Notes under the pieces: model-generated
Databases searched by the model: none
The model's input: only the letters and a program-made list of their open reading frames with translations
What the model was told of the DNA's origin: nothing
Shown: one piece after another, positions 1,926 through 22,817 of the stretch
How positions within the stretch are numbered: the first letter of the stretch is position 1
Layout: the number at the start of each line of letters is the position of its first letter
Assembly (NCBI GenBank): GCA_963809485.1
Contig: CAWEJX010000017.1
Location: forward strand, 1 to 64,000
Reading direction: 5' to 3'
Origin: an uncultured Acidobacteriota bacterium
Lineage (GTDB): Bacteria; Acidobacteriota; UBA6911
DNA: 64,000 bases
Position numbers and translations under genes: made by a program

Positions 1926-2118
1926 TTTAAGAGACCATAGCGCCGGGCTACCTATGATGATGTCACATGGATTGTTAACGCTGACGCTGGTTGGATCCTC
2001 CAAATCTGACAACGATCGTGTTTTCAAAATCAGGCCATAAGCCGGGTACAAAGCTGATCGCGTAGTTGAATGGCGCCCCATTTTGTTTCTGTTAGCAACT
2101 GGATTGGAGGAGATGATT

Positions 2119-4023
2119 ATGCCGGATAAGGTGGTGGAAACCTCGCGAGAGGAAGTGTATTACCCTTCGGCCGAAGTCGTGGCCCGCGCCTATATCAAAG
2201 ACTGGGATGAACTGGCGCATAGGGCTGATGAGGATTTTGTCGGTTTTTGGGAGGAGTGCGCCAGAGAATTGATTGATTGGCATCATCCTTGGACCAAAGT
2301 TCTGGATGATTCCACCAAACCCTTTTTCAAATGGTTCATTGACGCCAAGACCAACATTGTCCATAACGCCGTCGATCGCCATTTGAAGACGGCGAGCAGG
2401 AATAAACTTGCCCTGATCTGGGAAGGGGAAAGGGGTGAGCAGCGAACTTTTTCCTATTTTGCGCTTAACCGCGAAGTCAGCAAATTTGCCAGTGTGCTCA
2501 AGGCTCTGGGGGTGCGTAAGGGCGACCGGGTAACCCTATATATGGGTCGTGTGCCGGAATTGCCGATTGCCATGCTCGCATGTGCAAAAATCGGCGCGTT
2601 GCATTCTGTGGTATATGGCGGCTTTTCCACCGAAGCGCTTCACGGGCGCATCGAAGACTCGTTGTCTCGAGTGGTTATCACTTGCGACGGCGCATTCATC
2701 AACGGCAAAGTTGTTGAACTTAAAAAAATCGCCGATGAAGCGATCAAACGCGCGCCGATCGTGGAACATGTCGTTGTCTTTAAACGCACGGGACAGACTA
2801 TTGAAATGGAGGAGGGCCGCGACATGTGGTGGCACGAACTGATGGCCCTCCCCATTGCAGACTGGCGATGTCCTACAGAGGTACTCGATTCGGAAGATCC
2901 TTTGTTCTTGCTTTATACATCTGGCACCACAGGGAAACCCAAGGCCATCGTGCACACTCACGGTGGCTATCAGGTAGGCATTGCAGCCACAATGAAATAC
3001 GTCTTCGATCTGAAGGATGAGGATCGATGGTGGTGTGCTGCGGATCCAGGATGGATTACGGGGCATTCGTATATGGTATATGGACCCCTCATCCTTGGTG
3101 CGACGGGCATCCTTTATGAAGGAGCGCCAACCTTTCCATATCCGGACCGTTGGTGGTCAATGGTGGAAAAATACGGTGTAAATGTTTTCTACACCTCTCC
3201 AACGGCCATTCGCGGCCTGATGCGCTTTGGTGAAGCATGGCCTAACCGGCGGGATTTATCATCGCTTCGTTTGCTCGGATCGGTCGGAGAGCCTATCAAC
3301 CCGGAAGCTTGGCGTTGGTATCACAAAAACATAGGGAAAGAGCGTTGCCCGATCATGGACACATGGTGGCAAACGGAGACGGGGCAATTCATGATCACTC
3401 CTGTGCCATGTGCACCGCTAAAGCCCGGCTCCGGCACGCGTCCATTTTTTGGTCAGCAAGCCGATATTCTGGATGAAAACGGGAATCCTGTAAAAGAGGG
3501 AGAGGAAGGCTATCTGGTTCTGAAACGTCCCTGGCCCGCGATGTTACGCACTATTTATGGGGATCCCGATAGGTATGTGCAGCAATACTGGAATCGTTTC
3601 CCGGGAGTGTATTTCACCGGTGATTCTGCGCGGCGTGACAAGGACGGCTACTATTGGATTATCGGCCGCGTCGACGAAGTGATCAAGGTATCCGGCTATC
3701 GGCTGGGCACGGCGGAAATCGAGTCGGCTCTTACGTCTCATCCGGCAGTAGCAGAAGCGGCAGCAATTGGCTTACCCCACGAGGTGAAAGGCCAGGGAAT
3801 TCACGCCTTTGTTCTGCTGCGGCAAGGTTTCTCGCCTTCAAAGGATCTGGAAGAAGAACTGCGCCAGCATGTCGGTTCCGAGATGGGGCCCATCGCTAAA
3901 CCGGAGAATATACACTTCCTGGAAAAGCTGCCCAAAACCCGCTCAGGCAAAATCCTGAGGCGCGTTCTAAAGGCTCGCATGCTGGGATTGAGTGAAGGAG
4001 ACACTTCTACACTGGAAGAATAG
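2119..4023 (+). CDS. acs: Acetate--CoA ligase (acetyl-CoA synthetase)
   Basis: YTSGTTGKPK, GSVGEPINPEAW, DTWWQTETG and PKTRSGKILRR motifs; GGAGG RBS at 2106-2110. Confidence 0.96.
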   Translation: MPDKVVETSREEVYYPSAEVVARAYIKDWDELAHRADEDFVGFWEECARELIDWHHPWTKVLDDSTKPFFKWFIDAKTNIVHNAVDRHLKTASRNKLALIWEGERGEQRTFSYFALNREVSKFASVLKALGVRKGDRVTLYMGRVPELPIAMLACAKIGALHSVVYGGFSTEALHGRIEDSLSRVVITCDGAFINGKVVELKKIADEAIKRAPIVEHVVVFKRTGQTIEMEEGRDMWWHELMALPIADWRCPTEVLDSEDPLFLLYTSGTTGKPKAIVHTHGGYQVGIAATMKYVFDLKDEDRWWCAADPGWITGHSYMVYGPLILGATGILYEGAPTFPYPDRWWSMVEKYGVNVFYTSPTAIRGLMRFGEAWPNRRDLSSLRLLGSVGEPINPEAWRWYHKNIGKERCPIMDTWWQTETGQFMITPVPCAPLKPGSGTRPFFGQQADILDENGNPVKEGEEGYLVLKRPWPAMLRTIYGDPDRYVQQYWNRFPGVYFTGDSARRDKDGYYWIIGRVDEVIKVSGYRLGTAEIESALTSHPAVAEAAAIGLPHEVKGQGIHAFVLLRQGFSPSKDLEEELRQHVGSEMGPIAKPENIHFLEKLPKTRSGKILRRVLKARMLGLSEGDTSTLEE

Positions 4024-4560: not shown

Positions 4561-4575
4561 TACCACGTAGTGGTA
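4561..4575. promoter_or_regulatory. Putative operator TACCAC-N3-GTGGTA upstream of the cytochrome operon
   Basis: TACCACGTAGTGGTA, 57 bp upstream of the ATG at 4633, in an AT-rich intergenic stretch. Confidence 0.6.
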
Positions 4576-4632
4576 CTGGGAATGGATATTTCAGATATGT
4601 ACTCTGAATCACAGATTGGTGATTCTTTTAGG

Positions 4633-6073
4633 ATGGTTTTTACCTTTTTGCGGCTCACCGTGATCCGCAATGTATCGATTGCCGTTTTGCTTGCCGCTTG
4701 CGGTACTGCGCTCCTTTTTGCCGCCAAGCATCCCATTCCTCTCGATAAAGATACTGACAGTGCAAAGTGCCTCAATTGCCACCAGGGCAAGTTCAAAGCA
4801 AAATCTGTCCATACGGCGGTCTCGAAGGGCTGTCTTTCCTGCCATGAAGTGCGTGTCGCCAATGACATTACCCGTATAAAGCTGACCACAACCACGGTCC
4901 TATCCCTGTGCTTGCAGTGCCATGCCGACAAGAAACCCGTCCCGGGAGAGAAGCTGCTGCATCCTCCGGCCGCACAGGATTGCACCAAGTGCCATGATCC
5001 CCATGTTTCCTCGAACAAGGACCATCTGCGAAAATCCCTCTCAGGCGGCCGCAGGACCGAGAACCTTTGTCTTAACTGTCACAATATGGGGTTGAACGTC
5101 CCGGCAAATGGGAGCCGGCATGATCCTCTCGATGTGGGGTGCGACACCTGTCACGTAATTCACAAGGCAGGTGCGCCGGGAAATGCGGAATTCAATCTTC
5201 ATCTGGCCGCAGACCCGCGCGCTCTGTGCGCAACGTGCCATGATTTGGAAGACGAGTTGCTCGTCAAAGCCCACCAAGGGCAGCCGTTCGGCAGTGCAGA
5301 TTGTTTGACCTGTCATGCTACCCACCAGTCTGACCGGCCGAAACTGGCCCAGCAGTTCGTGCATCGTCCCTATGCGGAAAAATTGTGCGATGCCTGTCAC
5401 CAGGCGCCGCAGGACGGCAAGGTGGTTCTTACGAAAACCGACTCCAACGAGCTTTGCGTCTCATGCCACGAAGAAACTGCCGGGAAGATCAAAAGCGCGA
5501 TAGTTCAGCATAAGGGAGCTCAGGCGCCGTGTCTCAGTTGCCATGCCCCCCACGCGTCGAGAAACCCCGGATTTGTGCGTCCCGATCCGGTGAACGCCTG
5601 CCTTCGCTGCCATAGCGACCAAGCGAAGCAGACAGAAAAAGAAATATTTGCACCAACCGGCCTTCGGGCAGGGCTGCAGCACCTGTCACGAGCCGCACGG
5701 CGGCGAAAACAGCCCTTTACTTCGCGCAAAAACCGCCAACAGCCTTTGTCTCGAGTGCCACGGGACTGAGCCCAAGCCTATGCCAGCAAAGGAGGCGAAC
5801 ATGGTCACGATCTTCAATGGCCGTGTGAAACTGCCGGAAGGGTACTTCAGCACAGTATCGACGATCCCCATCAAGTACGGCTTGGGCCATCCAGTCGAGC
5901 GGCATCCAGTCGTTGATCAGATGGATCCGGGGGACAATGCCAAGGTTCGCGTCGCTATCAACTGTAGTTCCTGCCACCAGCCCCATTCGTCGGAAGAACG
6001 TAATCTGCTGGTGAAGGATCAGGCCAATAACATCCAGTTCTGTGCTGGCTGCCACATAAATTGGGGCAAGTAG
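4633..6073 (+). CDS. Periplasmic multiheme cytochrome c, 16 CxxCH, one frameshift
   Basis: Signal peptide; 12 CxxCH in ORF 4570-5769 and 4 in ORF 5648-6073. Removing one A from the run at 5636-5640 joins them (..EKKYLHQPAFGQGCSTCH..). Confidence 0.88.
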
Positions 6074-6093
6074 GAAGCGGGAGGACCGACAGG

Positions 6094-7368
6094 ATGTCAG
6101 CAGTTCGGAACAACCGGGCTATTCGCCGGATCAGCCGCAAGACACTGTCAACTATGTTGGTGATTACCTTGGCCCTCATTGCAGCCTGCTCCTTATTCGC
6201 AAAGGACAAAAAGAAAAACAAGAACGATCAAGAAGAACAACCGAATCCCACCTATGCGGATAACCGCAAGCTTTGGGAGAGTCTCGACGTTTCGAAGTTC
6301 GTGTGGCCAAACCCGCCGGCGATCACCCGAATCCGCTATACGGGCTATTGGTCGGGAGAAAAACTCGTCGAGAAAAAACAGCAGAAGAAGTCCAGCTGGA
6401 TGGAACGCCTCTCCGGCATCGCTACCGGGTCCATCCCCAGCGATTACAAGCCGCGCTGGCAGTTGGTTACTCCCAATGGGATCGCGGTTGACTCCAAAAA
6501 CCTTGTCTACATCGCCGACAGCAAGGTCCGGGCGATCTTTATTGTCAACGTCGAGACCGGTGAATATTCAATGATCAAGAACGGCTCCGACGGCAGGTTC
6601 AAGTGGCTTGTGGGATTGGCGATCGATGACAGCGACCGGCTGTTCGCTGCCGACAGCGGCATGCGACATGTCGTCGTATTCGATAAGAATCACAAGGCTG
6701 AAGCAGCGATTGCCGAAGGCCTCCATGCTCCCGGCGGCCTCGCCATCGACAACGATAGCCGCTTGCTCTACGTCACCGATGCGGATCAGGACCTGGTGCT
6801 TGTTTACGATGCCGATCCGCCGTACAAGCTTGTCCGGAAGTTGGGCAAGCCGGACACCGAGCACACTTCGACTGCGCCCGGAGAGTTTGCAAAGCCGGCC
6901 GGTGTGGCCGTGAACGAGGAAGGCATGGTTTTCGTCTCCGATACCTGGAACAACCGCATCCAGGTATTTGATGCCGATGGTACGTTTATCAGGGCGTTCG
7001 GCGAGGCCGGAGACGGCCCGGGATATTTCGCGCGTCCGAAAGGCATTTCAATCGACAGTGATGGCCACGTCTGGGTCGCCGACGGTGTGCAGGACCGGGT
7101 CCAGGTGTTTACTCCCGAGGGCAGACTGCTGATTTACATGGGAGAACACGGCTTGCTGCCGGGTCAATTTCAAAGCCTCGCAAATGTGATGGTCGACAAA
7201 AACAACCGAGTCCTTACCACGGAGCTGTATCCGGGCCGGTTGCAAGTGTTTCGGTATTACACGAATTCTGAGGCAAAGGCTGAGTTAGATCGCCGCAATG
7301 CAGAGGGCAAGAAGAAAGCATCTCAAAAGGAACCCACGTCCTCGTCTGCGCCTGCGGTCAAGAACTAG
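6094..7368 (+). CDS. Secreted NHL-repeat six-bladed beta-propeller
   Basis: Signal peptide, WPNPPAITRIRY motif, repeated PxGIAVD..YIAD and NNRIQVFD units; GGAGG RBS at 6080-6084. Confidence 0.9.
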   Translation: MSAVRNNRAIRRISRKTLSTMLVITLALIAACSLFAKDKKKNKNDQEEQPNPTYADNRKLWESLDVSKFVWPNPPAITRIRYTGYWSGEKLVEKKQQKKSSWMERLSGIATGSIPSDYKPRWQLVTPNGIAVDSKNLVYIADSKVRAIFIVNVETGEYSMIKNGSDGRFKWLVGLAIDDSDRLFAADSGMRHVVVFDKNHKAEAAIAEGLHAPGGLAIDNDSRLLYVTDADQDLVLVYDADPPYKLVRKLGKPDTEHTSTAPGEFAKPAGVAVNEEGMVFVSDTWNNRIQVFDADGTFIRAFGEAGDGPGYFARPKGISIDSDGHVWVADGVQDRVQVFTPEGRLLIYMGEHGLLPGQFQSLANVMVDKNNRVLTTELYPGRLQVFRYYTNSEAKAELDRRNAEGKKKASQKEPTSSSAPAVKN

Positions 7369-7502
7369 CCGTGCCACAACGAGTCTGGCTGTCATTTCAA
7401 TTGCGGCAGCCAAAAACGGGCCAACCGTAATCCGGCCCGTGGAGTGGAAGTGCAAAGCCAAAGCATAACTAAGTTGGATCCTTTATCAGGAGGTTTCAGT
7501 CG

Positions 7503-8531
7503 ATGAAGAAGTTATTGATGTTTTCTCTCGCCGTGCTGGTTTGTGCCAGTGTGGCAATGGCACAAACGTATACACAAGGAACCGGCATCCAGGGCATCGA
7601 CAAATTGGGCGCTCACCAGAACGGCGGGCGTGGTTGCGTCGGTTGCCATACCCCTCACAGCGGAGCCCGCGGCAATGGCGGCACGCTGCAGTGGGATCCA
7701 GCCAGTCGGACGTTTATAACCGTGCCCGTTGTTGGTGAATCTGGCGATGATGCCCTATGGGGACAGGACCTCGGGCCGGTGATTGGTTTGGGCGGCCTTG
7801 CCACCGGCACAGGCGGCGAATTTCCTGTTGAATTCACCGAGCTGGAAACCAGGCCCCGCATTAAGACCGGTGTCGTCATGTGCTTGAGCTGTCATGACGG
7901 GAATGTGGCCCGGGGCGCAATGATGACCAACCAGTCGTTCGAGCAAACTGCCGGGCTTCTGCCGCCCGGCTATGGCACGCAACCAATTCCCACCCTGTTA
8001 GGCAACGATGGGGGCAGTATAGGCAACTACACAAACGATCATCCGATTGGGCCGGAGGCTAATGTAGGCACGCTCGGTATAAGCACCAGCTCAACCCGGA
8101 GTTATCTGGCCTTCGACAATGCGGCAGCCCCATTAAGACTGGTCAAGGGTACTACCTTCACCGGTAGCCCCTACGAAGAGTTCCAAAAAAATTATGGCTT
8201 GCCGACGACCATTGGCGCCCGCACAGGTTCTGGTTTCGCGGTGGAAACAAATATGACTTCGGTGAACCAGGCGTACGTGGTTTGCACCACCTGTCATACA
8301 CCGCACACCATGTACACTGCCACGGCAGGGAGTACTAATCCGATTGCCAATGCCACTGCTGGCACGTACCCAAGCTACTTCTTCATCTCCGCTCCCTACA
8401 ACCCGGGGGCAGACACTGCCGGCGGAACCAAAGCATCCTCCGCAACTCAATTCTGCCGTCAGTGCCACTTCACAGGTGCGGGCGGTTCGAACGAAGGCAG
8501 CAGTATCCTGGGAATTGGCACTTCTTTCTAA
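7503..8531 (+). CDS. OmcE-like tetraheme cytochrome c, candidate nanowire subunit
   Basis: Sec signal; CVGCHTPH..ALW..CLSCHDG..NDHPI..CTTCHTPH..CRQCH; exactly 8 His for 4 hemes; AGGAGG RBS at 7488-7493. Confidence 0.8.
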   Translation: MKKLLMFSLAVLVCASVAMAQTYTQGTGIQGIDKLGAHQNGGRGCVGCHTPHSGARGNGGTLQWDPASRTFITVPVVGESGDDALWGQDLGPVIGLGGLATGTGGEFPVEFTELETRPRIKTGVVMCLSCHDGNVARGAMMTNQSFEQTAGLLPPGYGTQPIPTLLGNDGGSIGNYTNDHPIGPEANVGTLGISTSSTRSYLAFDNAAAPLRLVKGTTFTGSPYEEFQKNYGLPTTIGARTGSGFAVETNMTSVNQAYVVCTTCHTPHTMYTATAGSTNPIANATAGTYPSYFFISAPYNPGADTAGGTKASSATQFCRQCHFTGAGGSNEGSSILGIGTSF

Positions 8532-8541
8532 CAAGCTTTTG

Positions 8542-8571
8542 CGAGGGGGGAGAGTATTTCTCCCCCCCTCG
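8542..8571 (+). terminator. GC-rich stem-loop after the tetraheme gene (mRNA stabiliser or leaky terminator)
   Basis: CGAGGGGGGAGA-gtatt-TCTCCCCCCCTCG forms a 12-bp stem with one bulge; no following U-tract. Confidence 0.65.
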
Positions 8572-8608
8572 ACAGACTCAGACAGTTTTCAGCAAGTTGA
8601 GAAGACCT

Positions 8609-9625
8609 ATGGAACTCCGGCTGTGCATGATGGCCGTAGTATTGTTTGGCGGGCCCCTGGTTTTCGGGCAGGGCCCCCTGGGGTCCTCGCACGCTTCGCC
8701 CGTTAAAAATGCGGCCCCGGGCAAGTTGGCTTCCACCACGACGCCCGCCGTGCGAGTCAACGGCGCCGTGCTGACAGAAGCCGATGTTATCCGCCAAATG
8801 AACGCGATGTTCCCATATGCCAGTCAACACGGCGGCTTTCCAAAGCCGTTGGAGGCCGACATCCGGAAGGGCGCCATAGAGATGATCGTTTTTGAAGAAC
8901 TGCTCTATCAGGAAGCCAGGCTCATCAAAATTCCCATAGCTCCCGAGCGGCTGAAAAAGGCTGAAGACGCATTCCGCAAGCAACTGGGCTCCAGCGCCTT
9001 CGATCAGTTCCTGCGCACCGAGTGCCAAGGCTCAAAGCAGGTGCTGCGCGAGAAGATCCGGCGTTCGTTGCTGATCGAGAAGATGCTCGAGACCGAGGTC
9101 GAACAGAAGTCAGTTATCAGCGTGATGGAAGCCAAGGCGTATTACGACAAAAACCCGAAGCAATTCGAGAACGCCGAGAGTTTAAGAATCCAGACGATCT
9201 CGATTATCCCGCCCCAAAACGGCGGAGCCGCTGTCAAGCAAGAAGCCCGCCGTCGGGCGGAGGAAACATCCAAGCTCGCCCGGGCCACAAAAAGCTATCA
9301 GGATTTTGGGCTGCTTGCGGAAAAAATATCCGAAGACGATTGGAAGATCAACATGGGCGACCGCAAATTTGTCGCGGTCTCGACACTCCCTCCTCAGGTT
9401 GTCAAAGCAGCAGCAGCAATGAAACCAGGCGAGGTTAGCGATCTTATCCAGTTGGGGGATGCCTATACCCTGTTCCGGCTGGTCGAACATAAACGTGCGA
9501 GCAAAACACCGTTTGACGCAGTGAGGGTCAAATTACAGTCCGATCTGCAAAAGCAAAAGCGGGTGGAGCTGCGCGCGGCGCTGAACCGGAGACTGCGCGA
9601 GAACGCGAAAATTGAAGTATTCTAA
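8609..9625 (+). CDS. SurA/PrsA-like foldase with PpiC (parvulin) prolyl isomerase domain
   Basis: Signal peptide, VRVNGAVLT, EELLYQEA, YYDKNPKQF, DFGLLAEKISED and MKPGEVSDLI. Confidence 0.88.
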   Translation: MELRLCMMAVVLFGGPLVFGQGPLGSSHASPVKNAAPGKLASTTTPAVRVNGAVLTEADVIRQMNAMFPYASQHGGFPKPLEADIRKGAIEMIVFEELLYQEARLIKIPIAPERLKKAEDAFRKQLGSSAFDQFLRTECQGSKQVLREKIRRSLLIEKMLETEVEQKSVISVMEAKAYYDKNPKQFENAESLRIQTISIIPPQNGGAAVKQEARRRAEETSKLARATKSYQDFGLLAEKISEDDWKINMGDRKFVAVSTLPPQVVKAAAAMKPGEVSDLIQLGDAYTLFRLVEHKRASKTPFDAVRVKLQSDLQKQKRVELRAALNRRLRENAKIEVF

Positions 9626-11471
9626 GGTTGTTCTGGTGTATCCAGGGACGAAAGCAGGGAGATTTCTTGCCGTAAGCGCGATAGGCCTGGTGTTTGTGCT
9701 CGTGTGCGTGTCTTCGGCAAACGGCCAGGTGACGGTGGGCAACAAACTCAAAATGCTCATGAACGGAAGCTTGGGCACCGTTTATTCGGGCAACTTCGGC
9801 AATTACATCGGGTCCAGCCACAGTCTGGGCGTTGGGGTAAACGGCACTTTAGAAGGCTACTATTTCCATCCTCAATTCCTGAGCTTCCAAGTTCGCCCCT
9901 ATTACGACCGCGCACAATCCAATTCCGAATCGCAGATGATTACGAGTGGCACGGGCGCGGAGGGTTCGGTAAGCCTTTTCGGAGGCAGCCATTTCCCCGG
10001 CTCGATCTCATACGGGAAAAATTTCAGCGGCAACAGCGAGTTTAGAATCGCGGGGATCCCATCGGTTCTGGTGGATTCATCCGGCAGCAGCTTTAATGTT
10101 AGCTGGAGCGCCTTGCTCGACGGCCTACCCAGCCTTAACGCCAGTTACTCCATGGCCGATTCCACGTCAACATTGCTGGGTACAACAAGCCAGAGCAGGA
10201 GTTCCTCCAGGAACTTGAACCTGAATTCGAGTTATGCGCTCGGTGGGTTCAGCCTGCACGGCAGATTTAACCATTATGATACGGACTTTTTGTCTCCGAG
10301 TTTTTTGACCGGAGAAACCATCGGCAGCACCTCATCGAGTACGAATTACGGCGTTACTGCGACGCGCAGTCTTCCGCTTTCCGGCAGTCTGGGACTGGCG
10401 TGGTCGCGTACGACCTCGGAAAGTGGAAATAACGATTTCACAAGTGACGCCTACACGGCATCGGCCAGCCTTTCACCTTGGCGGAGATTGTCCATAAGTC
10501 AGATTGTCAATTACACAACAAATGATATTATCCCAATTTCACAGTTATCCGGTGACAACACTATTTCACCTTTCGTTAACATCAATTCAAATTCAAACGC
10601 AGTTTATATGAATACTACGGGGACTCTCTGGGTGGGTCACGGACTTACAGTCACCGGCTACTTGAACCATAGGGTCCGGCATTTTCAGGCGCAAGATGTA
10701 TCGAATACGCAATACGGAGGCACAGTAAACTATCAAAAGGCGAACAACTTTCTAGGATTCCTGCGATTCTCCGTCGGCGTTGTGGATATGGCGACGCAGG
10801 ATGGCAACAGCGGCCTCGGCCTGGTGGCAAATCTCGGGATGACGCGCAAGTTCGGCCGATGGGAAACCACAGCAGACGTCAGCTATGCGCAGCATACCCA
10901 GACTCTTCTTGCCATCGTAACAACCAGCAATTACAATTATGGAGGTACGTTCCGGCGCAAGCTCAATTCGTCGACATACTGGGGTGCGAGCTTCCGGGAA
11001 TCGCGCAGCGGATTGGCTGTGCAGGAGGGCAACAGCAACGTTTCCGATACGTACGCCACGAACCTCTCGTGGAATAAATACTCTTTATCCGGCCACTATT
11101 CGCGGTCGAATGGTGAGGCGTTGCTGGGGGCAGACGGCACACTGACCGCCACGCCCTTGGGTTCCGTTATCAGCGATTATTTTCTCACTTTTGATGCCCG
11201 GAGCTATGGCCTATACGCCAGTACGCAACTGTTCCGCATGCTGACCCTGAGCAGCGCTTACACAAATGTCTCCAGTAGCACCATTCGGAAGGCAATAGGC
11301 ACATTTAACAACGGCGACCGCATTAGTGCCCGCCTTGCCTTTCGGATGCGGAGACTTTATATTCAGGCCGGATTTAGTCACGCAGTGCAGGAATCCAGCG
11401 CTGTTTCGGGCGGACCGCGAGTGGTAAACTCGTATTATGTGAGTCTATCAAGATGGTTCAACGTGTTCTGA
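9612..11471 (+). CDS. Large outer-membrane beta-barrel (candidate porin or secretion channel)
   Basis: 619 aa, signal-like N-terminus, S/T/N/G/Y-rich alternating strands, C-terminal YYVSLSRWFNVF beta-signal; start codon uncertain. Confidence 0.8.
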   Translation: MKYSKVVLVYPGTKAGRFLAVSAIGLVFVLVCVSSANGQVTVGNKLKMLMNGSLGTVYSGNFGNYIGSSHSLGVGVNGTLEGYYFHPQFLSFQVRPYYDRAQSNSESQMITSGTGAEGSVSLFGGSHFPGSISYGKNFSGNSEFRIAGIPSVLVDSSGSSFNVSWSALLDGLPSLNASYSMADSTSTLLGTTSQSRSSSRNLNLNSSYALGGFSLHGRFNHYDTDFLSPSFLTGETIGSTSSSTNYGVTATRSLPLSGSLGLAWSRTTSESGNNDFTSDAYTASASLSPWRRLSISQIVNYTTNDIIPISQLSGDNTISPFVNINSNSNAVYMNTTGTLWVGHGLTVTGYLNHRVRHFQAQDVSNTQYGGTVNYQKANNFLGFLRFSVGVVDMATQDGNSGLGLVANLGMTRKFGRWETTADVSYAQHTQTLLAIVTTSNYNYGGTFRRKLNSSTYWGASFRESRSGLAVQEGNSNVSDTYATNLSWNKYSLSGHYSRSNGEALLGADGTLTATPLGSVISDYFLTFDARSYGLYASTQLFRMLTLSSAYTNVSSSTIRKAIGTFNNGDRISARLAFRMRRLYIQAGFSHAVQESSAVSGGPRVVNSYYVSLSRWFNVF

Positions 11472-12553
11472 TCCGGACGTGCGGAACAAGGTCGCTTTTT
11501 CCTCTGCTGTTGACCGGCGCACTTTTGCTTTCACTGGTCCCCGCATTTGCCCTCGAACGGTCGAAGACTCCCGCGGATAAATCTTGGCCGGAACTCCTGC
11601 TTGAGGCCGGACGTAAGCTTACCTACCAGCAATCGATTACATCGGAGCGCGATGTGGGTGGCAAACAGGGATTCTGGTCCAAATTGGTCGGCATCGTGGC
11701 GGGTGCGCCCGAGTTCCGCGAAATGGTGCGCCCCTACGGAATCGCGGTCGATTCCCATGGCCGCGTGATTGTTACCGATCCGGCCATTTCCGCCGTACAC
11801 ATTTTCGATCCTGCAAAGCGCAAGTATAAGCTGATCAATCGCTGGGACATGAGAAAAGACCCGATGATGGCTCCCCAGTGTGCGGCAGTCGATGAGAAAG
11901 ATAATATTTACATAACGGATTCGGAAGCCGGCAAAGTGTTCGTTTTTGATCCGCAGGGCAAGGCCCGAAAGGTATTCGGCAGCCTGAAAGGGGGTGAGGG
12001 CTTTTTCAGGCGTCCCACGGGAATTGCTATCGATCGTGGGACGCATCGCGTTTACGTGACCGATACGCTGGCCCATCGAGTGTATATTCTCGATGGTGAT
12101 GGGAGGGTGCTGCGAAGCTTCGGACAACATGGCGCAGAAAAGGGCGAATTCAGCTTTCCGATTGAGGTTCAAGTGAAGAACGGCGTGGTCGTGGTGGTCG
12201 ATGCAATGAACTTCCGCGTCCAGTTGTTTGATCGTGACGGCAACTTCCAGGCGCAGATCGGAACCAGCGGAGATCCGGCGGGCGGCATTTACCGTCCGAA
12301 AGGTGTCGGCATCGACTCGGAAGATCACATTTATGTTGTGGACAGCGAGTTGGGATTGGTTCAGGTGTTTGATCGCAGGGGGCGCTTGCTCTACCACTTC
12401 GGCAATGGCACTAACTTCGGTCAGTTCCTGCTCCCCGCGGGGTTGTTCATTGATCCCAACGACCGCGTGTATTTGGTGGACTCGTATAATCGTCGCGTGC
12501 AGGTCTTCCAGTATCACGCCATGCCGCCAATCCCGACTGGAGCGCGGCAATGA
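11453..12553 (+). CDS. Second secreted NHL-repeat beta-propeller
   Basis: Signal peptide; RPYGIAVD, RPTGIAID, RPKGVGID and NRRVQVFQY repeats. Confidence 0.9.
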   Translation: MVQRVLIRTCGTRSLFPLLLTGALLLSLVPAFALERSKTPADKSWPELLLEAGRKLTYQQSITSERDVGGKQGFWSKLVGIVAGAPEFREMVRPYGIAVDSHGRVIVTDPAISAVHIFDPAKRKYKLINRWDMRKDPMMAPQCAAVDEKDNIYITDSEAGKVFVFDPQGKARKVFGSLKGGEGFFRRPTGIAIDRGTHRVYVTDTLAHRVYILDGDGRVLRSFGQHGAEKGEFSFPIEVQVKNGVVVVVDAMNFRVQLFDRDGNFQAQIGTSGDPAGGIYRPKGVGIDSEDHIYVVDSELGLVQVFDRRGRLLYHFGNGTNFGQFLLPAGLFIDPNDRVYLVDSYNRRVQVFQYHAMPPIPTGARQ

Positions 12554-14394
12554 GCTGGAACCGCATGGCGAGGGCCAAGGCACTCGCGTGGGCGCTCCTG
12601 CTTGCCGCACCCACGGGAGCCCAGACCAACCGGACGACCGATGTCCTCGGCGTGCATGACATGAGTTCCGGAGCTTCACCGATGCACGGGCCCAACGCGA
12701 ACGCCTGCATCTACTGCCACGCCCCGCATAACGCACTCTCGGCCTCCAGGCTCTGGAACCAGACCCTCTCGACAAACGAGTACATTCTGCATCCAGACTC
12801 GACGAGCACACCCTCTGCGCCAACAGCGGTCGGAACGGCAAGTTTGCGGTGTCTAAGCTGTCATGATGGCAGCGTAGGGGTGGGGCGTACGGTGGCCATC
12901 GGCACACTGCAGATGACCGGCGCACTCCGCGCCAATATGGGAGCACAACTGGAAGGATCGCATCCCTTCAGCATGCAACCGGAGATCAAGGATCACCCAA
13001 CCCTGGTGTCATCCTTGGTGGCATCGCATACCACCAAGGATGATTCAGTCTCGTTGGTGGAGAACAATATAGAATGCTCCACCTGCCACGACGTTCACAA
13101 CCAGTTCAAGGACCCGCGCTCCCCCAAATTCCTGGTACGGGACAACACCGGAAGCCGTCTGTGCCTTGCGTGCCACGATGTGGGTGGCCGCACGGTAGGC
13201 GGGATCAACAATTCACTCACCGCCTGGCCTACCAGCGCGCATGCCCTATCAACGTTTGGGGTGGCGCAGTTGGGCGGATATGAGACCGTGAACGAATATG
13301 CCTGTTCTGTTTGCCACAGATCTCATAATGCACTCGGTACGGGGTTGCTGCGCAAAAACCCGAATCGTCCGGCGAACGTCGACGAGACGTCTCAGGCATG
13401 TCTTACGTGTCATGACGGCAGCGATAGCCTGGCTCAACCGCTCCTCAACGTGCTAGGGGCATTCAACGGGCAACAAGGGCATCCATTCTCGGACGACAGT
13501 AACCCGCACATGCTGAACGAGCCGGTTGTATTGGGCCGGAATCGTCACACCACCTGCGCGGATTGCCATAGCTCGCACGCCGCACAGCCGACGACATATT
13601 TTCCTGCAACGCCTGATCTTCGCCCCTCGCAAATTGGCGTTGCGGGCGTGGCATCGGATGGTTTGGTTGTCACCCCCGCAACCTATCAGTATGAGAATTG
13701 CCTGCGATGCCATGGTACCAGCCAGAACAAGCAGAGCTTGCCCGCTTACGGCTATATGCCCGCACGCGCTCTCTTCTCAGGTGACACCCTGGATGTGTCT
13801 CTGCAGTTCGCGCATGGCGCGATTTCGTCTCATCCTGTCATGCGCGATGCTCGAAACCTGGCGCGCCCGAGTTTGCTTAAATCCATGTGGAATATCGGCT
13901 CCGAAGTGCCGGGTCGCGCCATGAGTCCCCGGATTCTCTGCACGGATTGCCACAACAACGATAATGCCCGTGAGTTTGGCGGCACGGGTCCGAACGGGCC
14001 TCACGGGTCTATAAACGATCACATTCTGGAACGCCAGTATCTGATGAGCCGCGTCGGGACGGGAGCCTTGCCCGGAACAGTGGTTGCCAATCTTAATCCG
14101 AACCCGATTTTGGACTCCGCGCCTGCATCGCCTTATGCTCTCTGCGCGAAGTGTCACGATCTGAACTACATCAACTTAAGCGAGAGTTGGAGCGGGCATG
14201 GCAGGCACATTCAGCAAGGATTTTCGTGTTCAGTGTGCCACAGTGCACATGGCGTACCGGCAGGAACTTCGAACGTCAGCGGCAGCGCTCTGGTGAGCTT
14301 CGACATGAATGTCGTCGGAAGCAACAATAGCCTGCCGGTATCTTACAGCGGCTCCACGTGCACACTGACGTGCCACGGGAAGGCGCACCCGTGA
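12550..14394 (+). CDS. Multiheme cytochrome c (11 CxxCH + 1 CxxxCH) with OmcE-like N-terminal module
   Basis: HDMS..CIYCHAPH..LWN..CLSCHDG..SHPF..ECSTCHDVH..FLV..GSRLCLACH, then 8 further motifs; ATGA overlap with the upstream gene. Confidence 0.9.
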   Translation: MSWNRMARAKALAWALLLAAPTGAQTNRTTDVLGVHDMSSGASPMHGPNANACIYCHAPHNALSASRLWNQTLSTNEYILHPDSTSTPSAPTAVGTASLRCLSCHDGSVGVGRTVAIGTLQMTGALRANMGAQLEGSHPFSMQPEIKDHPTLVSSLVASHTTKDDSVSLVENNIECSTCHDVHNQFKDPRSPKFLVRDNTGSRLCLACHDVGGRTVGGINNSLTAWPTSAHALSTFGVAQLGGYETVNEYACSVCHRSHNALGTGLLRKNPNRPANVDETSQACLTCHDGSDSLAQPLLNVLGAFNGQQGHPFSDDSNPHMLNEPVVLGRNRHTTCADCHSSHAAQPTTYFPATPDLRPSQIGVAGVASDGLVVTPATYQYENCLRCHGTSQNKQSLPAYGYMPARALFSGDTLDVSLQFAHGAISSHPVMRDARNLARPSLLKSMWNIGSEVPGRAMSPRILCTDCHNNDNAREFGGTGPNGPHGSINDHILERQYLMSRVGTGALPGTVVANLNPNPILDSAPASPYALCAKCHDLNYINLSESWSGHGRHIQQGFSCSVCHSAHGVPAGTSNVSGSALVSFDMNVVGSNNSLPVSYSGSTCTLTCHGKAHP

Positions 14395-14535
14395 CTATCA
14401 GATCATTTGACAGGCCTCGATCCGAAAACTATCATGGGCCCGATCCGGGATTATCGTGCTCGATGCGTCGGCCATGGTGGCAATGCTTCTTTCCAAAGAT
14501 TGCGGCAGTCAATGCTTGGCGGTTAAGGGCATCCA

Positions 14536-15162
14536 ATGGAACGTATTGAGCCAACGGCGAAGTCCTGGAGCGGCACGCAGGTTTACGGGCTTGCAGTGAT
14601 CTGTTTGTTCTCGGGCATCGGCATTGGGTACTTGGCCCGTGCTCCCTTCCAGGCAAGTGACGTCAAGCCCCCGGTGGCAAGGCCCTCCGCCGCGCACGGT
14701 TCCAGCGTGAGGATCACACCCGGCGAATTGAAGCAGGCGGCAGATAAACAGGCCGAACCTTTAGTGGCCCGACTGCGGAAGTCGCCTGACGATCCCTCCC
14801 TTCTGGCGGAAATCGGTAAGATCTATTATCAGATGCGCCAATTCCCCATGGCGGCAAAGTATTATGAGGACTCCGTCAGAGTAAAGCCGGACGCCGTCGT
14901 CTTCGTAAAACTCGGCGGTGCCTATCACTTTGACGGGAAAGAGGAGAAGGCAATCGGCGCCTGGAACCACGCGCTGCGTCTCGATCCCAATAATCCCGAC
15001 GCACTGTTCAACATCGGCTTTGTGAGCTGGCATGCGCAGGGCAACCGGGAGGCGGCGATTGCCGCCTGGCAGAAGCTTCTTAAGACGAATCCGAACCATC
15101 CGAAGCGCGCTCAAGTGGAAGAGCTTCTCGCTCAGGCAAAACAACACCCAGAAAACGATTAG
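14536..15162 (+). CDS. Membrane-anchored TPR protein
   Basis: N-terminal TM helix; TPR units such as AIGAWNHALRLDPNNPDALFNIG. Resembles CcmH/CycH-type TPR domains. Confidence 0.8.
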   Translation: MERIEPTAKSWSGTQVYGLAVICLFSGIGIGYLARAPFQASDVKPPVARPSAAHGSSVRITPGELKQAADKQAEPLVARLRKSPDDPSLLAEIGKIYYQMRQFPMAAKYYEDSVRVKPDAVVFVKLGGAYHFDGKEEKAIGAWNHALRLDPNNPDALFNIGFVSWHAQGNREAAIAAWQKLLKTNPNHPKRAQVEELLAQAKQHPEND

Positions 15163-15305
15163 CGTGCGCAAGCTGCCGGTCGAGAGCCGCAGGCTTTGAT
15201 GAACAGCATCCAGCTGCGTGCTGGGCCGTCAACGGCTGAGGAGGGACTCCCCAAAGCAAGCCAGAGCACCTGCAGTTGATCGTATTCGTTCCAAAGCTTT
15301 TATAT

Positions 15306-16682
15306 ATGAAATGTAGTTTGCTGGTTATAGCGTTGCTCCTTGTCGTAATCCTCGTTTACCTGCCGGCCGCTCGCTATTCTCTTGTCTATGACGACCACGA
15401 GCAGATCGAAATGAATCCGCGTTTGACGGACTGGAGCTATGTGCCTGGGTACTTCACAACTCATCTATGGGCACACTCACCTCTGCAAGCCCCGAATTAT
15501 TACCGGCCGCTTTCGCTGCTGTTTTTTCGCCTGGAATACGCCCTTTGGGGACCTCCCTCTTCCATCTGGCATTTCGCATCCCTGGCGGCCCATCTAGGAG
15601 CGACTGTTTGCCTGTTCTTGCTGATTCAACACTTGGTGGGGAGCTTCAAGGCCGCATTAGTGGCCGGAGCGCTGTTTGCCCTTCATCCCATCCAAACAGA
15701 GACCGTTGTATGGATATCTTCCTGTCCCGACATTCTGGTGACAGCCTTTCTTGCACTTTCTCTGTATTTCTACAGGGTCCGAAAAGGGCCGATCAGCTTC
15801 GGTTCCGTCCTATTCGCAGCTTTGGCCGTATTCACCAAGGAAACGGGAATCGCGGCACCGGCCCTAATTTTCGCCTACGAGTGGATACACTCCCGCTTCA
15901 AAAACGCAGTTATCGCCACTTTCCCTTACGTCGTCGTGGCGCTGCTTTACATCGCCGCCCGCATCAACGCGATTGGGAGCGTCACATCGGCAGTCGCTCC
16001 AGACATGAGCATGGCATCCACGATTTTGACCCTGCCGAAAGTGCTGGCTATCTATGCGCTTCACCTGATTTGGCCCGCACGTCTCAGCCCCAGCTACGAG
16101 GTGGCCGTGGAATCGCGCGTCTGGCCGCTCCCGTTGGCTATCGCGGTGCTGCTTGCCCTATTCTGGCTGCTGCGAGGCAGTTCTGCAAATGCGCGATTCG
16201 GAGCGGCGTGGGTGGCGATTACACTCGCTCCCTCGCTGGCGCTGGGCTATCTGACCAGGGGCGACTTTACGCATGACCGTTATCTCTACCTTCCAAGCCT
16301 GGGCCTCGCCATCATCGTGGCGGTGTGGAGTACACGTACCCAATTTACGTTTCGAGAGCGAGCACTGGCCGGCGCACTTGCTTTGGCTTGTTGTTTCGGT
16401 GTCCGGAAATATCTGCCAGTTTGGGAAAGCGACATCACTTTGTTTACGCGTGCGGTTGAGCGGGCCCCGCACAATCCACATGTCAAGAATAGCCTTGCGG
16501 ATGCCTATTTGAAAGCCAACCGCCCTGCCGAAGCATTTCCTCTGCTGCAGGAGGCCATAAAACTCAAACCGGACTATGGGCTCCTGTACTACAACATGGC
16601 GCGCTACTACAGAATGATAGGGGATTATGGGGAGTCTGAGCGCTACCTCACGATTTCAGATCGCCTCTACCCGGGAAGATAG
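15306..16682 (+). CDS. TMTC-like GT-C membrane glycosyltransferase with C-terminal TPR
   Basis: LVYDD, YYRPL, LFALHPIQTETVVWIS, TKE and DRYLYLP motifs, many TM helices and a TPR tail. Confidence 0.82.
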   Translation: MKCSLLVIALLLVVILVYLPAARYSLVYDDHEQIEMNPRLTDWSYVPGYFTTHLWAHSPLQAPNYYRPLSLLFFRLEYALWGPPSSIWHFASLAAHLGATVCLFLLIQHLVGSFKAALVAGALFALHPIQTETVVWISSCPDILVTAFLALSLYFYRVRKGPISFGSVLFAALAVFTKETGIAAPALIFAYEWIHSRFKNAVIATFPYVVVALLYIAARINAIGSVTSAVAPDMSMASTILTLPKVLAIYALHLIWPARLSPSYEVAVESRVWPLPLAIAVLLALFWLLRGSSANARFGAAWVAITLAPSLALGYLTRGDFTHDRYLYLPSLGLAIIVAVWSTRTQFTFRERALAGALALACCFGVRKYLPVWESDITLFTRAVERAPHNPHVKNSLADAYLKANRPAEAFPLLQEAIKLKPDYGLLYYNMARYYRMIGDYGESERYLTISDRLYPGR

Positions 16683-16852
16683 CACTCCATCGGGGCAATG
16701 CTCCCATGCAAAATGAAATCTCCCGATTCAATTGTCCGCATTGATTGAACAAGCTACAATCAATGCTTAGAGAACAAATGGACACCATAAACTTTTCGAA
16801 AGGGATAAATGTTTTCCGACAAAGGGGACGCTTTACCGGAGTGAAACTACTA

Positions 16853-18241
16853 ATGATGAGGTCATTTATAAGGCACAGATTGTGCCTTTGCATGGCGGTG
16901 GGACTCGAAATGCTTCTGGCCGGCAGCTCCTCAGTTTTCAGCCAAGGCAAACCCGGGAGTCCTGTGACTCAGACAAAGGGTTATTGGCGTACCTCCACCT
17001 GTAAGGGATGTCACGATCAGATCGTGGCCCAGCATCTGGCGTCCTCTCATGAAAGGTCTTTTACAAATCCAGCATTTCAGGCCCAATACCAGAAAGATCT
17101 CCTGCCCAAGGCCGCGACGGACCCGGATCTCCAAGCGGAGGCGCGCGAATGCATCGCTTGCCATGAGCCGGTCACCTACGCCATGAAGGGTCCGGGGTTT
17201 TTGTCGCTCCGGGAAATCGACCCCGATATGAATGGCGTAACATGCGATATCTGTCATAGCATGACGGGATACCGCGACGCAAAGCCGCAAAATGGCAACT
17301 ATATTATAGAACCGAGCGATAGGAAACTTGGCCCCTTCAAGGGGGAGGGCGACTGGCATCATACTTATTCGGAATTACAGACAAAGAGCGAAATCTGCGC
17401 CGTTTGCCATGAAGCCGTAAACAGACATGGACTCAGGATCAAGGCCACATTCACCGAGTGGCAGGAGAGCGCTTTCGCCCAGCAAGGGGTGCACTGCCAG
17501 GACTGTCACATGAACATCGATGGATTCCTTACGTCAGGAAAACCTCGATTCGCCTCCGGCACAGGCTGCCGCCATGAGTCTTGGAAGCGCTCCGCAGCGA
17601 GAGCGTCTATACACGCATCAATTCCCCGGCGCCCACTCCAAAACCCAGATCGAGGGTGCCATCACCCTGGCGATCGAGTCCATCCCCCCAAAGGACTCAC
17701 AGAACAATACGCTTGCCCTTGAAGTAACCGTTGACAACTCGCGCACGGGACACAGCATGCCATCCGGCAGCGCCGATCTTCGACTGCTGTGGATCGAGGT
17801 AACTGGTTCGTATCGGAGACGAGCCAATTGGGCAGCCTGCGGTCATCCTCGAGCCTGAGACACTGGATGAATCGAGTGCCTACTCACTCGCAGGCCGTGG
17901 AAGGTTCGACTCCATTCTCTTAGGACCGGAGATCCCGAAAGGAAGTCGCATCTATCGGGCTGTCTTTGCCGATGGTGCAGGACAGGCAACACTCGATTCG
18001 TACAACGCCGTAGCCAAGTTATTTGACAACCGGCTGAAAGCCCGCAGAGAAGCGCAAAGAGCCCTATCGATTCATGATTCCCGAAGGGGCGAAGGGCGAC
18101 ATCACGATCAAAGCCACATTGAAGTATTTGCCCTACTCCAGCACCTTCACTAACCGATTTGGCCTCCCTGTCCCCCAGGAGGTCATCGTGGCACAGCGGG
18201 AGATCCGCCTTGGTGCCAAAGATCGGCAACCTGCAAGCTGA
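16853..18241 (+). CDS. Cytochrome c554-like pentaheme protein, several frameshifts
   Basis: CKGCH, CIACH, CDICH, CAVCH and CQDCH, then in shifted frames YTHQFPG, TGHSMPSG..RLLWIEV and FDNRL; stop TGA at 18239-18241. Confidence 0.75.
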
Positions 18242-18550
18242 AAAATTGTGCTGGAAATTCCTGGCGACTGGATTTGGCGAATGCAGGACCAAGTCCAGGA
18301 CCAGGTTTAGCCTGCTTTTCACACAGGATTCCTGCTGCACCGATTCATCCTGGTGTCTCCGTTCAGCTTGCATGTCACAAGTCGCAGGTCACAGGCGGCA
18401 AAATGCAACTTGCGACCTGCGACATTTGACCCTTAATCGATAATCTCCATGACCATGCAGCCCGTTTCGTGACGAAAAGCTGTGAGAAATGCCGGTTGGG
18501 TCCGAGTGCGGGTTTCCAAGCCCAGGAGCTTGCCGCCCCTCCCGGCCAGA

Positions 18551-19957: not shown

Positions 19958-19981
19958 CCGCGTGCTTGCCGAAATTGAAAC

Positions 19982-21253: not shown

Positions 21254-21407
21254 CCTTAGTTTGAATTTCAGAACTGAGACGTTTCGCATAGCAAAAGGGG
21301 ATGGCTCAAATGCCGCTTATATCATGACTGAATCCACAAAAGCGCTGCATATTTCCGCCCCGATTATTCACATCCTGCATTTTGGGGCCGCGAGGTTCCA
21401 TGCGATT

Positions 21408-22804: not shown

Positions 22805-22817
22805 GAAAGTCAGTTCC

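Follow-up and report, generated by a model that had tools for sequence, protein, structure and literature searches.

Does the run of nine genes at 4633–16682 encode an extracellular cytochrome filament with its assembly factors, as an earlier note on this DNA had proposed, or another kind of electron transfer system? The window, i.e., the whole 64,000 nt stretch that was analysed, belongs to a soil-type acidobacterium; the phylum was taken from the labels of three same-genus genomes, in agreement with the probable acidobacterium of the earlier note. The reading favoured here, with some reserve, is that the cluster is akin to the Geobacter OmcE "nanowire" genes, as an acidobacterial form of the gene cluster for OmcE-type extracellular cytochrome filaments.

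Gene order and its conservation

The nine ORFs are co-oriented and partly overlapping, as first described (Table 1). Overlaps between neighbouring genes occur at four pairs (6061/6073, 9612/9625, 11453/11471 and 12550/12553).

Table 1. Features of the cytochrome gene cluster, in window coordinates.
Feature	Position	Strand	Basis or remark
16-heme c-type cytochrome	4633–6073	+	Paired_CXXCH_1 (Pfam) 1.5e-42; split by frameshift
Frameshift site in 16-heme gene	5643–5655	+	A5-G-A3 run
NHL-repeat beta-propeller 1, secreted	6061–7368	+	NHL (Pfam) 3.8e-28; directly upstream of subunit gene
Long-form OmcE-like tetraheme, 342 aa, presumed filament subunit	7503–8531	+	4 CxxCH, Sec signal
Periplasmic SurA-N + PpiC (parvulin) prolyl isomerase/chaperone	8609–9625	+	Rotamase_2 2e-17, SurA_N 1.9e-5 (Pfam)
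619-aa putative outer-membrane beta-barrel, no known family	9612–11471	+	Presumed secretion pore or anchor
NHL-repeat beta-propeller 2	11453–12553	+	NHL (Pfam) 1.1e-27; stop overlaps 12-heme start
12-heme cytochrome, three tetraheme modules	12550–14394	+	11 CxxCH + 1 CxxxCH
Module 1 of 12-heme protein	12550–13185	+	Full OmcE module
Module 2 of 12-heme protein	13195–13749	+	Second OmcE-like module
Module 3 of 12-heme protein	13750–14391	+	Divergent tetraheme module
Membrane-anchored TPR protein, CcmH/NrfG-type TPR domain likeness	14536–15162	+	Pfam TPR families
Polytopic membrane protein with C-terminal TPR	15276–16682	+	At least 5 hydrophobic segments

The conserved core consists of seven genes in the order 16-heme cytochrome, NHL propeller, tetraheme, PpiC/SurA-like foldase, 619-aa putative barrel, NHL propeller and 12-heme cytochrome. 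This order is kept in 70 of 80 related genome loci, and six of the ten loci departing from it are cut by contig ends. The linkage is far beyond chance, and the neighbourhood survey upheld this part of the original proposal. Three of the 80 loci carry Verrucomicrobiia labels. Spread within the genus is patchy (6 of 29 other genomes), and includes an intact cluster in L088, a single-contig genome of 6.9 Mb. The layout recurs in distant acidobacterial loci and in metagenome loci, there with short, classical OmcE-like subunits.

The two genes downstream of the 12-heme gene are local additions that lie outside the conserved core. The product of the first was correctly named a TPR protein; its match to TPR_CcmH_CycH (Pfam, 1.2e-7) is under the cut-off, and its gene is found downstream of the 12-heme (cyt12) gene in 9/63 loci. 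A promoter-like site before it (14407–14435) has 11 of 12 matches, but the counts of such sites are at chance level. The membrane/TPR gene adjoins the cluster in a single locus of 63. Its product was earlier taken for a GT-C-type glycosyltransferase, which is a possible identity that the searches did not confirm: residues 1–375 gave no Pfam match at E ≤ 10, PDB matches were confined to the C-terminal TPR part, and a weak NCBIfam match (AZOBR_p60025, 2.6e-6) reached 26.8 bits against a cut-off of 150. A polytopic membrane domain joined to TPR is compatible with GT-C enzymes without proving one. Given how rarely either gene adjoins the core, the suggestion that this pair modifies the filament as part of the cluster found no support.

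The OmcE-type cytochromes

The tetraheme, described in the earlier note as OmcE-type, is by profile comparison a member of the OmcE superfamily. A search of 177,635 PDB sequences with its family profile returned the solved OmcE filaments as the top two matches (9YUQ, 2.8e-10; 7TFS, 0.0043), and alignment to the stand-alone OmcE family by hhalign gave 99.5% (E 6e-23). The latter family includes Geobacter metallireducens protein P0362, itself matching 7TFS at 1.9e-26. Homology between the two families is secure only over the stretch between heme 1 and the NDHP motif (102 columns of the hhalign alignment), the C-terminal half carrying large insertions and an extra tail, which is conserved and ends in Phe. 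At 342 aa, the protein is longer than OmcE subunits of 218–232 aa. OmcS structures were absent from the PDB matches, whether the search used the tetraheme itself or its profile (E ≤ 10 or E ≤ 1).

Across the 44 sequences of the tetraheme family, the four CxxCH motifs and eight His (38, 49, 52, 131, 180, 265, 268 and 322) are invariant, and H38, H52, H180 and H268 are the ones beyond the four motif His. OmcE conservation is likewise described as four CxxCH plus four further His (PMC13712944), the arrangement seen in the Desulfuromonadia proteins of G. sulfurreducens (7TFS) and D. soudanensis (9YUQ). A separate 134-nt leader containing an AGGAGG site precedes the gene.

Eight His residues of this kind also fit a monomeric bis-His tetraheme. 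A heme-free AF2 model of the tetraheme gave no fold match.

The 12-heme cytochrome was recorded earlier with its correct motif content, and 12 heme motifs are present in 66 of 67 homologues; that it is made up of OmcE modules had been overlooked. A phmmer search against the PDB gave a single match, 7TFS_A (E 4.1e-13), covering chain residues 10–230 of 232 and placing a complete OmcE module at residues 13–209. The OmcE and cyt12 families align by hhalign at 100% (E 9.5e-52). Module 2 resembles module 1 (BLASTP, 2e-8) and the OmcE family (97.7%, E 1.6e-12), and each of these two modules has four hemes and eight invariant His; module 3 matches the OmcE family at 87% with a register offset. From these alignments the protein resembles a head-to-tail fusion of two OmcE subunits. 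The OmcE operons described so far encode no anchor or tip candidate (PMC13712944), whereas here OmcE modules occur within the 12-heme protein, and it is this finding, drawn from sequence comparison, that is new. The protein is a possible filament anchor, seed or adaptor.

Among metagenome loci, an NHL gene precedes 44 of 54 cyt12-like genes. A stand-alone OmcE-like tetraheme is also present in 26 of the 32 loci entered via a cyt12-like gene, and a cyt12-like gene in only 4 of the 12 entered via a stand-alone OmcE-like gene.

Putative barrel, 16-heme cytochrome, foldase and propellers

The 619-aa protein had been called a barrel. Its ORF was confirmed, and its product, which matches no family in Pfam, NCBIfam or PDB, is better described as a putative barrel. 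It has one hydrophobic segment, at the N-terminus, and none internally, is 42% G+S+T+N, and its homologues end in Phe in 70/70 cases. Its ESM-Atlas feature neighbours are outer-membrane barrel clusters, which is a lead only. The gene is single-copy in the genome, and its profile found no match among the ORFs of the metagenome loci, equivalent positions included.

The 16-heme protein is probably a periplasmic or barrel-inserted electron feeder. The system might instead work as a porin-cytochrome conduit with no polymer at all: the barrel would hold the 16-heme protein on the periplasmic side, the tetraheme and 12-heme proteins would be monomeric surface cytochromes, the NHL propellers would act as a scaffold, and humics, peat organic matter or Fe(III) would be the electron acceptors. 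A barrel (putative here) together with periplasmic-type and secreted multiheme cytochromes is the classic layout, shared with Mtr/Pcc conduits. The likeness of the 16-heme protein to the DmsE/MtrA family (TIGR03508, NCBIfam, 2.5e-33) points the same way, but at 115.7 bits it is under the curated cut-off of 192.2, and the 619-aa protein matches neither MtrB nor any other porin family. The only solved relatives of the tetraheme and of module 1 are polymers, and these OmcE-family proteins are additions to the Mtr/Pcc parts list. So are the dedicated foldase and the two propellers, which are not known as parts of such conduits. That the cluster is a conduit alone appears doubtful; the conduit and filament readings are in any case not mutually exclusive, because even a filament must be rooted in a conduit.

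The conduit reading has a precedent in EET1, a peat acidobacterial 'porin-scaffold-cytochrome system' of Terriglobales/UBA7540 that, in the available part of a 2026 preprint (bioRxiv 10.64898/2026.05.27.727921), has transcripts at depth and is read as an Mtr-like conduit. EET1 shares with the present cluster the phylum and syntenic multiheme cytochromes, porin (a putative barrel here) and 'scaffold', a figure legend there mentions 'OmcE-like' multiheme cytochromes, and the system is also reported from Verrucomicrobiota, to which the labels of three of the loci here likewise point. It is probably identical to the present cluster. The words 'nanowire' and 'isomerase' do not occur in that available text.

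The 16-heme gene has the 16 heme motifs claimed for it, but not in a single open frame. Twelve CxxCH lie in one ORF (4570/4633–5769) and the last four in the +1 frame (5648–6073), with the break near 5643–5655. The two parts share one frame in all 71 relatives, and intact homologues occur in L088, L089 and L090. The cluster copy in the window may be impaired by this frameshift, and a decaying remnant would be the result if this and the frame breaks of neighbouring cytochrome genes, i.e., the c554-like gene (three changes) and the minus-strand cytochrome array at 18551–24284, were real. Most long ORFs from 24 to 64 kb look intact by the ORF list alone, and the patchy spread within the genus also suits loss of function. 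Against this, the break falls in a run rich in homopolymers, where long-read indel errors are typical, the assembly has only 21 contigs, and the six other core genes are intact in the window. In the same-genus genome G435 (L007) there are stop codons within the tetraheme match and split tblastn matches in several cluster genes, suggesting error-prone assemblies. A non-working system in this genome is considered unlikely.

The foldase and both propellers were identified as in the earlier note. The foldase ORF opens at 8462, with Met50 at 8609 the likely start, and the Rotamase_2 match lies within it. The gene is retained in all 70 loci with the seven-gene order; it is missing from distant clusters with short subunits and was found in 8 of 45 metagenome loci. 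Propeller 1 keeps its position in 70 of the 80 loci. Its copy in the window has a lipobox-like Cys, but by a crude lipobox test only 5 of 75 homologues do, and the same test gave 5 of 73 for propeller 2. NHL/SGL-type propellers include enzymes (Pfam SGL and Arylesterase matches were obtained), so that the cluster could encode a redox enzyme complex of the periplasm that has nothing to do with extracellular electron transfer, with catalytic propellers and the cytochromes as electron partners, but the conserved linkage with a subunit of the OmcE family and a barrel-like secreted protein, and the lack of any catalytic family above curated cut-offs in Pfam and NCBIfam, make this highly improbable.

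Relation to known systems and a model for assembly

The favoured reading, an OmcE-type filament cluster, was compared with described systems. Occurrence outside Geobacter, named in the earlier note, no longer counts as new: OmcE clusters have been published for five phyla, Acidobacteriota not among them (mBio 2026, PMC13712944), and the acidobacterial EET1 appeared in the 2026 preprint. The minimal OmcE cluster has the same parts list of two multiheme cytochromes, two beta-propellers and a large secreted barrel-like protein (a putative barrel here), and freshwater Geobacter clusters have a nearby TPR gene and a possible glycosyltransferase gene, as here (PMC13712944). Differences are the insertions past the NDHP motif and the conserved C-terminal tail of the subunit, the SurA/PpiC foldase encoded between subunit and barrel (the word 'isomerase' does not occur in PMC13712944), and the propellers, which are lipoproteins in the published clusters (PMC13712944) and mostly not here.

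The osc (OmcS companion) operon of G. sulfurreducens similarly places a subunit gene with proposed factors for folding (OscH), secretion (OscE/F/G) and morphology (OscD), according to PMC13194489, with which the roles given in the earlier note agree. Its subunit is the hexaheme OmcS, of a different family from the 4-heme subunit here. In chaperone-usher pili, too, a periplasmic chaperone and an outer-membrane barrel are encoded alongside a major subunit and a minor protein resembling it, and these pili serve as an analogy for anchor subunits in PMC13712944. There is no sequence relation and the subunits here are heme proteins, so the likeness is one of analogy only.

In the model proposed for the filament, Sec would export all parts and heme would be attached in the periplasm. 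The coil-rich tetraheme would be kept assembly-competent by the foldase and propeller 1, and the 619-aa protein, as an outer-membrane barrel, would either secrete the polymer or carry it. The tetraheme would polymerise head to tail, one of its hemes taking a His ligand from the neighbouring subunit. OmcE filaments have such an interfacial heme, to which the adjacent subunit contributes a His ligand (PMC12954529). The 12-heme protein, produced along with propeller 2, would be a ready-made two-subunit stub that docks on a filament end via the subunit interface, its divergent module 3 coupling the filament to the 16-heme feeder.

A bolder version can be offered only tentatively: the 12-heme cytochrome may mimic two successive OmcE subunits in one covalent chain, with an adaptor module added, and be the long-sought anchor or nucleus of OmcE filaments. 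The invariant H231 at the N-terminus of module 2 would then ligate a module-1 heme in cis, like the neighbouring subunit in the polymer, and the first true subunit would be captured either by the free H36 of module 1 or by the heme left open at the opposite end. The stub would be kept at the barrel by propeller 2 and connected to the periplasmic feeder by module 3. If this were true, 12-heme anchoring would apply generally to OmcE nanowire assembly in different phyla rather than being an acidobacterial oddity, because many unrelated metagenome loci have cyt12-like genes alongside stand-alone OmcE-like ones.

The cytochrome cluster and its neighbours in the window

Nine ORFs were called on the forward strand between 4570 and 16682, with overlapping ends in several of them. 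Pfam identified both NHL beta-propellers, the PpiC foldase (as SurA-N/PpiC) and the TPR protein named in the earlier note, and heme-motif counts bore out the tetraheme gene and the 12-heme gene, the latter with 11 CxxCH motifs and one CxxxCH. Secretion signals are present in cluster proteins. The 16-heme gene does carry 16 CxxCH motifs in total, but not in one frame: ORF 4570-5769 contains 12, and the remaining four are read in the +1 frame, as far as 6073; the break falls at an A5-G-A3 run near 5643-5655. Both parts share one frame in 71/71 relatives, and intact 16-heme proteins of 485–574 aa occur in three other loci (L088-L090).

The 619-aa ORF, a putative barrel, has no match in Pfam, NCBIfam or PDB. 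PDB was empty for it by both phmmer and profile, and Pfam was likewise empty for 25 members of its family. For the cluster proteins looked up there, the ESM Atlas returned their own acidobacterial clusters plus weak barrel-like neighbours and nothing else. The last of the nine ORFs had been called a GT-C glycosyltransferase; its polytopic membrane part lacks any family match, so that 'GT-C' is a guess, and its C-terminal part is TPR.

Features of the window, with positions and strands
Feature	Position	Strand	Remarks
AMP-binding enzyme	2083-4023	+	acetyl-CoA synthetase-type; flank
16-heme cytochrome	4633-6073	+	
NHL propeller 1	6061-7368	+	
Hairpin	7416-7440		9 bp, GC-rich; within 134-nt spacer 5′ of the subunit gene
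Tetraheme cytochrome	7503-8531	+	
Tetraheme C-terminal 20 residues	8469-8528	+	Asn330-Glu331 and Thr340 nearly invariant
Foldase	8609-9625	+	
619-aa putative barrel	9612-11471	+	
NHL propeller 2	11453-12553	+	
12-heme cytochrome	12550-14394	+	
Promoter-like site	14407-14435		11/12 matches; between 12-heme and TPR genes
TPR protein	14536-15162	+	
Membrane/TPR ORF	15276-16682	+	
c554-like pentaheme gene	16745-18440	+	three frame changes near 17560, 17804, 18045
Multiheme cytochrome ORF pieces	18551-24284	-	convergent array; different frames, 43 heme motifs, 7 listed ORFs
13-heme ORF	18551-19957	-	intact; in array
ORF with NapC/NirT-like N-terminal part	22818-24284	-	in array
HEAT/PBS-lyase repeat protein	24524-26725	-	733 aa; flank

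That the window's cluster is frameshifted and adjoins further broken cytochrome genes counts against reading it as a filament system. The contexts of the three frame changes in the c554-like gene show no obvious homopolymers, and in L088, from the same genus, the homologue of this gene is an uninterrupted ORF of 475 aa. Two of the seven ORFs of the minus-strand array overlap in different frames; the array could represent a further electron-transfer module or a set of decaying genes. A promoter/terminator scan of the window gave overall site counts at chance level, and no tRNA gene was found in the window by a tRNA scan.

Conservation and distribution of the gene order

A profile of the tetraheme protein detected at least 543 encoding stretches in a species-level genome collection. 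With 8,000 candidates scored, more than 3,800 proteins had E ≤ 0.001, making this a large family; in a search of 1.84 billion representatives at the same threshold it formed 379 clusters at 50% identity, i.e., a compact one. The linkage of the genes was well supported by the neighbourhood survey: among the 80 best loci (of at least 543), 70 carry the 16-heme, NHL, tetraheme, foldase, 619-aa, NHL and 12-heme genes on one strand in this order. By label, 76 of these 80 loci are acidobacterial, three Verrucomicrobiia and one Binatia; lineages were looked up for three candidate taxa. Six of the ten exceptions are truncated by contig ends (L006, L031, L041, L042, L057 and L079). The other four have a tetraheme copy alone (L034, L071), both upstream genes missing (L056) or the tetraheme and foldase genes only (L064).

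The 12-heme gene is followed by a TPR gene in 9 of the 63 loci with enough sequence, by the membrane/TPR gene in 1/63 and by the c554-like gene in 2/63. The conserved unit therefore consists of seven genes, two fewer than proposed earlier. Extra long-form tetraheme copies also occur: a second copy lies 3′ of the 12-heme gene in L028 and L060, L068 has a tandem pair, the lone copy of L071 is 14 kb from the cluster (L065/L071), and one genome (G344) gave three matches.

The source genome is 6.0 Mb in 21 contigs, the window lying on contig 17, with 95.7% completeness and 7.3% contamination. A mis-binned contig is ruled out, since a same-genus genome consisting of a single 6.9 Mb contig carries the intact cluster (L088). 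Three same-genus genomes, labelled only 'Acidobacteriota bacterium', contribute loci L002, L003 and L007. In the window's order, for which 51 genomes including the source genome were searched, the tetraheme was found in 6 of the genus's 29 other genomes and in 0/21 from the order's ten other genera. An even sample of the phylum gave matches at E ≤ 1e-10 in 15/401 genomes, the strong ones confined to one family of another class. This patchy distribution may reflect transfer or repeated loss.

Relation of the tetraheme and 12-heme proteins to OmcE

Searched as a single sequence, the tetraheme protein had one PDB match, the OmcE filament chain of D. soudanensis (9YUQ, E = 2.2e-6). A broader profile of 44 tetraheme sequences ranked 9YUQ (2.8e-10) first and the OmcE filament of G. 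sulfurreducens, 7TFS (0.0043), second among 177,635 PDB sequences. Its relationship to OmcE, proposed earlier, was also evident in a profile-profile comparison with A4, a family constructed from stand-alone tetrahemes of 200–290 aa that includes a G. metallireducens protein matching 7TFS at 1.9e-26 (99.5% probability, E = 6e-23, with 102 columns spanning heme 1 to NDHP). Eight His are invariant across the 44 sequences, a pattern equal to the four CxxCH and four further His reported as conserved in OmcE in section 7 of PMC13712944. Compared with classical OmcE, the long-form tetraheme is about 110 residues longer; inserted segments follow NDHP and also lie between hemes 3 and 4, and whereas classical OmcE stops directly after heme 4, the long form has a conserved tail ending in Phe, which is the last residue throughout the close family. 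The tail may be an export or docking signal. As judged from the alignments, homology to OmcE is firm for the N-terminal half only.

AF2 models built from 30 close-relative sequences were unusable (pLDDT 50), and a more diverse alignment of 44 sequences raised the pLDDT to 71; the heme-free tetraheme model gave no fold match. Complex prediction with two mature tetrahemes and four hemes (eight sites), run without controls, scored 0.04 and 0.06 where the mark was 0.42, an outcome that weighs neither for nor against a polymer.

The 12-heme protein, as a single sequence, had 7TFS chain A as its sole PDB match (E = 4.1e-13). Its residues 13-209 align with residues 10-230 of 232 in 7TFS, including the N-terminal His motif, four heme motifs and the HP motif, and the OmcE and 12-heme families match over the entire OmcE length (100% probability, E = 9.5e-52). 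Residues 20-215 also match named short cytochromes of Geobacter, Desulfuromonadales, Nitrospiraceae and Gammaproteobacteria. The pattern is repeated in residues 213-400: modules 1 and 2 match by BLASTP at 2e-8, with hemes 1 to 3 in colinear order, and a module-2 profile matches the OmcE family from the N-terminal His onward (97.7%, E = 1.6e-12). Across 29 homologues, the same ordered set of exactly eight invariant His recurs in both modules. Module 3 has four hemes and ten invariant His, and its OmcE match is weak and out of register (87%), making its status as an OmcE module doubtful. Modules 2 and 3 as single sequences had no significant PDB match, and the relation of module 2 to OmcE is visible by profiles only. 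Twelve heme motifs are kept in 66/67 full-length homologues. Profile comparison establishes two cluster proteins as homologues of a polymerising cytochrome; an OmcE profile run over the window's genome had no match beyond the cluster.

Four distant acidobacterial loci detected by the tetraheme profile (L083, L085, L086 and L087) encode short tetrahemes of 214–287 aa, both NHL genes and a 12-heme homologue, without a foldase; L082 is truncated and L084 deviates from this layout. A metagenome scan based on the OmcE family turned up 80 loci, of which 45 span at least 9 kb. Since module 1 fits the scan patterns as well, a gene resembling that of the 12-heme protein (cyt12-like) was the point of entry for 32 of these 45, so the presence of such a gene in 36/45 reflects a biased sample and is not a prevalence. 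A stand-alone OmcE-like tetraheme is also present in 26 of those 32 loci, and a cyt12-like gene in four of the 12 entered via a stand-alone tetraheme. Immediately 5′ of 44/54 cyt12-like genes is an NHL gene, and 25 of the 33 such NHL genes with at least 2.3 kb upstream are preceded by a heme-less ORF of at least 350 aa. The last residue is aromatic in 16 of these 25 ORFs, and the barrel profile matched none of the 25 at this equivalent position. Foldase homologues occur in 8/45 loci, several of which have the exact order of the window (L143, L146, L160). The scan yielded no close Geobacter contig, the best having 38% identity to the G. metallireducens protein P0362.

Larger proteins adjoin OmcE-like genes in some metagenome loci: a 24-heme ORF with six OmcE-profile domains (L097:91-3261), a 16-heme ORF with four such domains (L138:8080-10116) and an ORF of 2317 aa that carries 58 heme motifs (L091:10831-17784). 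'Filaments' built of covalently joined modules may be a broader pattern.

Published clusters and proposed function

According to PMC13712944, a minimal omcE cluster comprises OmcE itself, a large beta-barrel, a pair of beta-propeller lipoproteins and two multiheme cytochromes, with glycosyltransferase and TPR genes 3′ of the cluster in freshwater genera. The paper places OmcE homologues in five phyla, Acidobacteriota not among these; its sole anchor candidate is encoded elsewhere than in the omcE cluster, and it states that OmcE operons come without a tip candidate. The propellers of the cluster described here, unlike the published ones, are mostly not lipoproteins. The roles given in the earlier note for the omcS-companion (osc) cluster match passages of PMC13194489.

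In the literature searched, 'OmcE-like' occurred only in PMC13712944 and in a 2026 peat preprint (10.64898/2026.05.27.727921). The preprint describes EET1, a syntenic 'porin-scaffold-cytochrome' cluster of Terriglobales/UBA7540, with 'OmcE-like' multiheme cytochromes in a legend; it is transcribed at depth and interpreted as a conduit. EET1 is probably the cluster of the window. The OmcE-type cluster in general is already published, and the acidobacterial one has probably been seen before; what is new is that the cluster is tied explicitly to OmcE filaments, that a foldase accompanies the long subunit and that the 12-heme protein is built from OmcE modules.

An OmcE-type cluster in Acidobacteriota is real and strongly conserved, and the seven genes very probably belong to this kind of cluster. 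That they make a filament is the favoured reading by a modest measure. The foldase and propeller 1 would tend a coil-rich tetraheme subunit, the 619-aa protein would be an outer-membrane pore or mount, and the tetraheme would form the polymer. The 12-heme protein with propeller 2 would provide a ready two-subunit stub on which the polymer is seeded, anchored or capped and through which it connects to the 16-heme feeder; its role as anchor or seed is tentative and less likely than not. In filaments of both OmcE and OmcS, a heme at the subunit interface takes a His ligand from the neighbouring subunit (PMC12954529), and H36 of module 1, H231 of module 2 and H38 of the tetraheme are candidates for the donated His. 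Standing against the filament reading are the lack of a fold match for the model, homology that is firm only in the N-terminal half, the unmatched barrel family and the mostly non-lipoprotein propellers.

The nanowire field asks by what means OmcE filaments are exported, initiated, anchored and terminated; here a co-encoded and co-conserved 12-heme protein of OmcE modules is a concrete, testable candidate. For heterologous reconstitution, the long-subunit variant with its foldase supplies a compact unit of seven genes. Acidobacteriota are dominant in many soils and peats, and if they form cytochrome filaments, these would account in molecular terms for long-range electron transfer to humics and minerals beyond the classical metal reducers.
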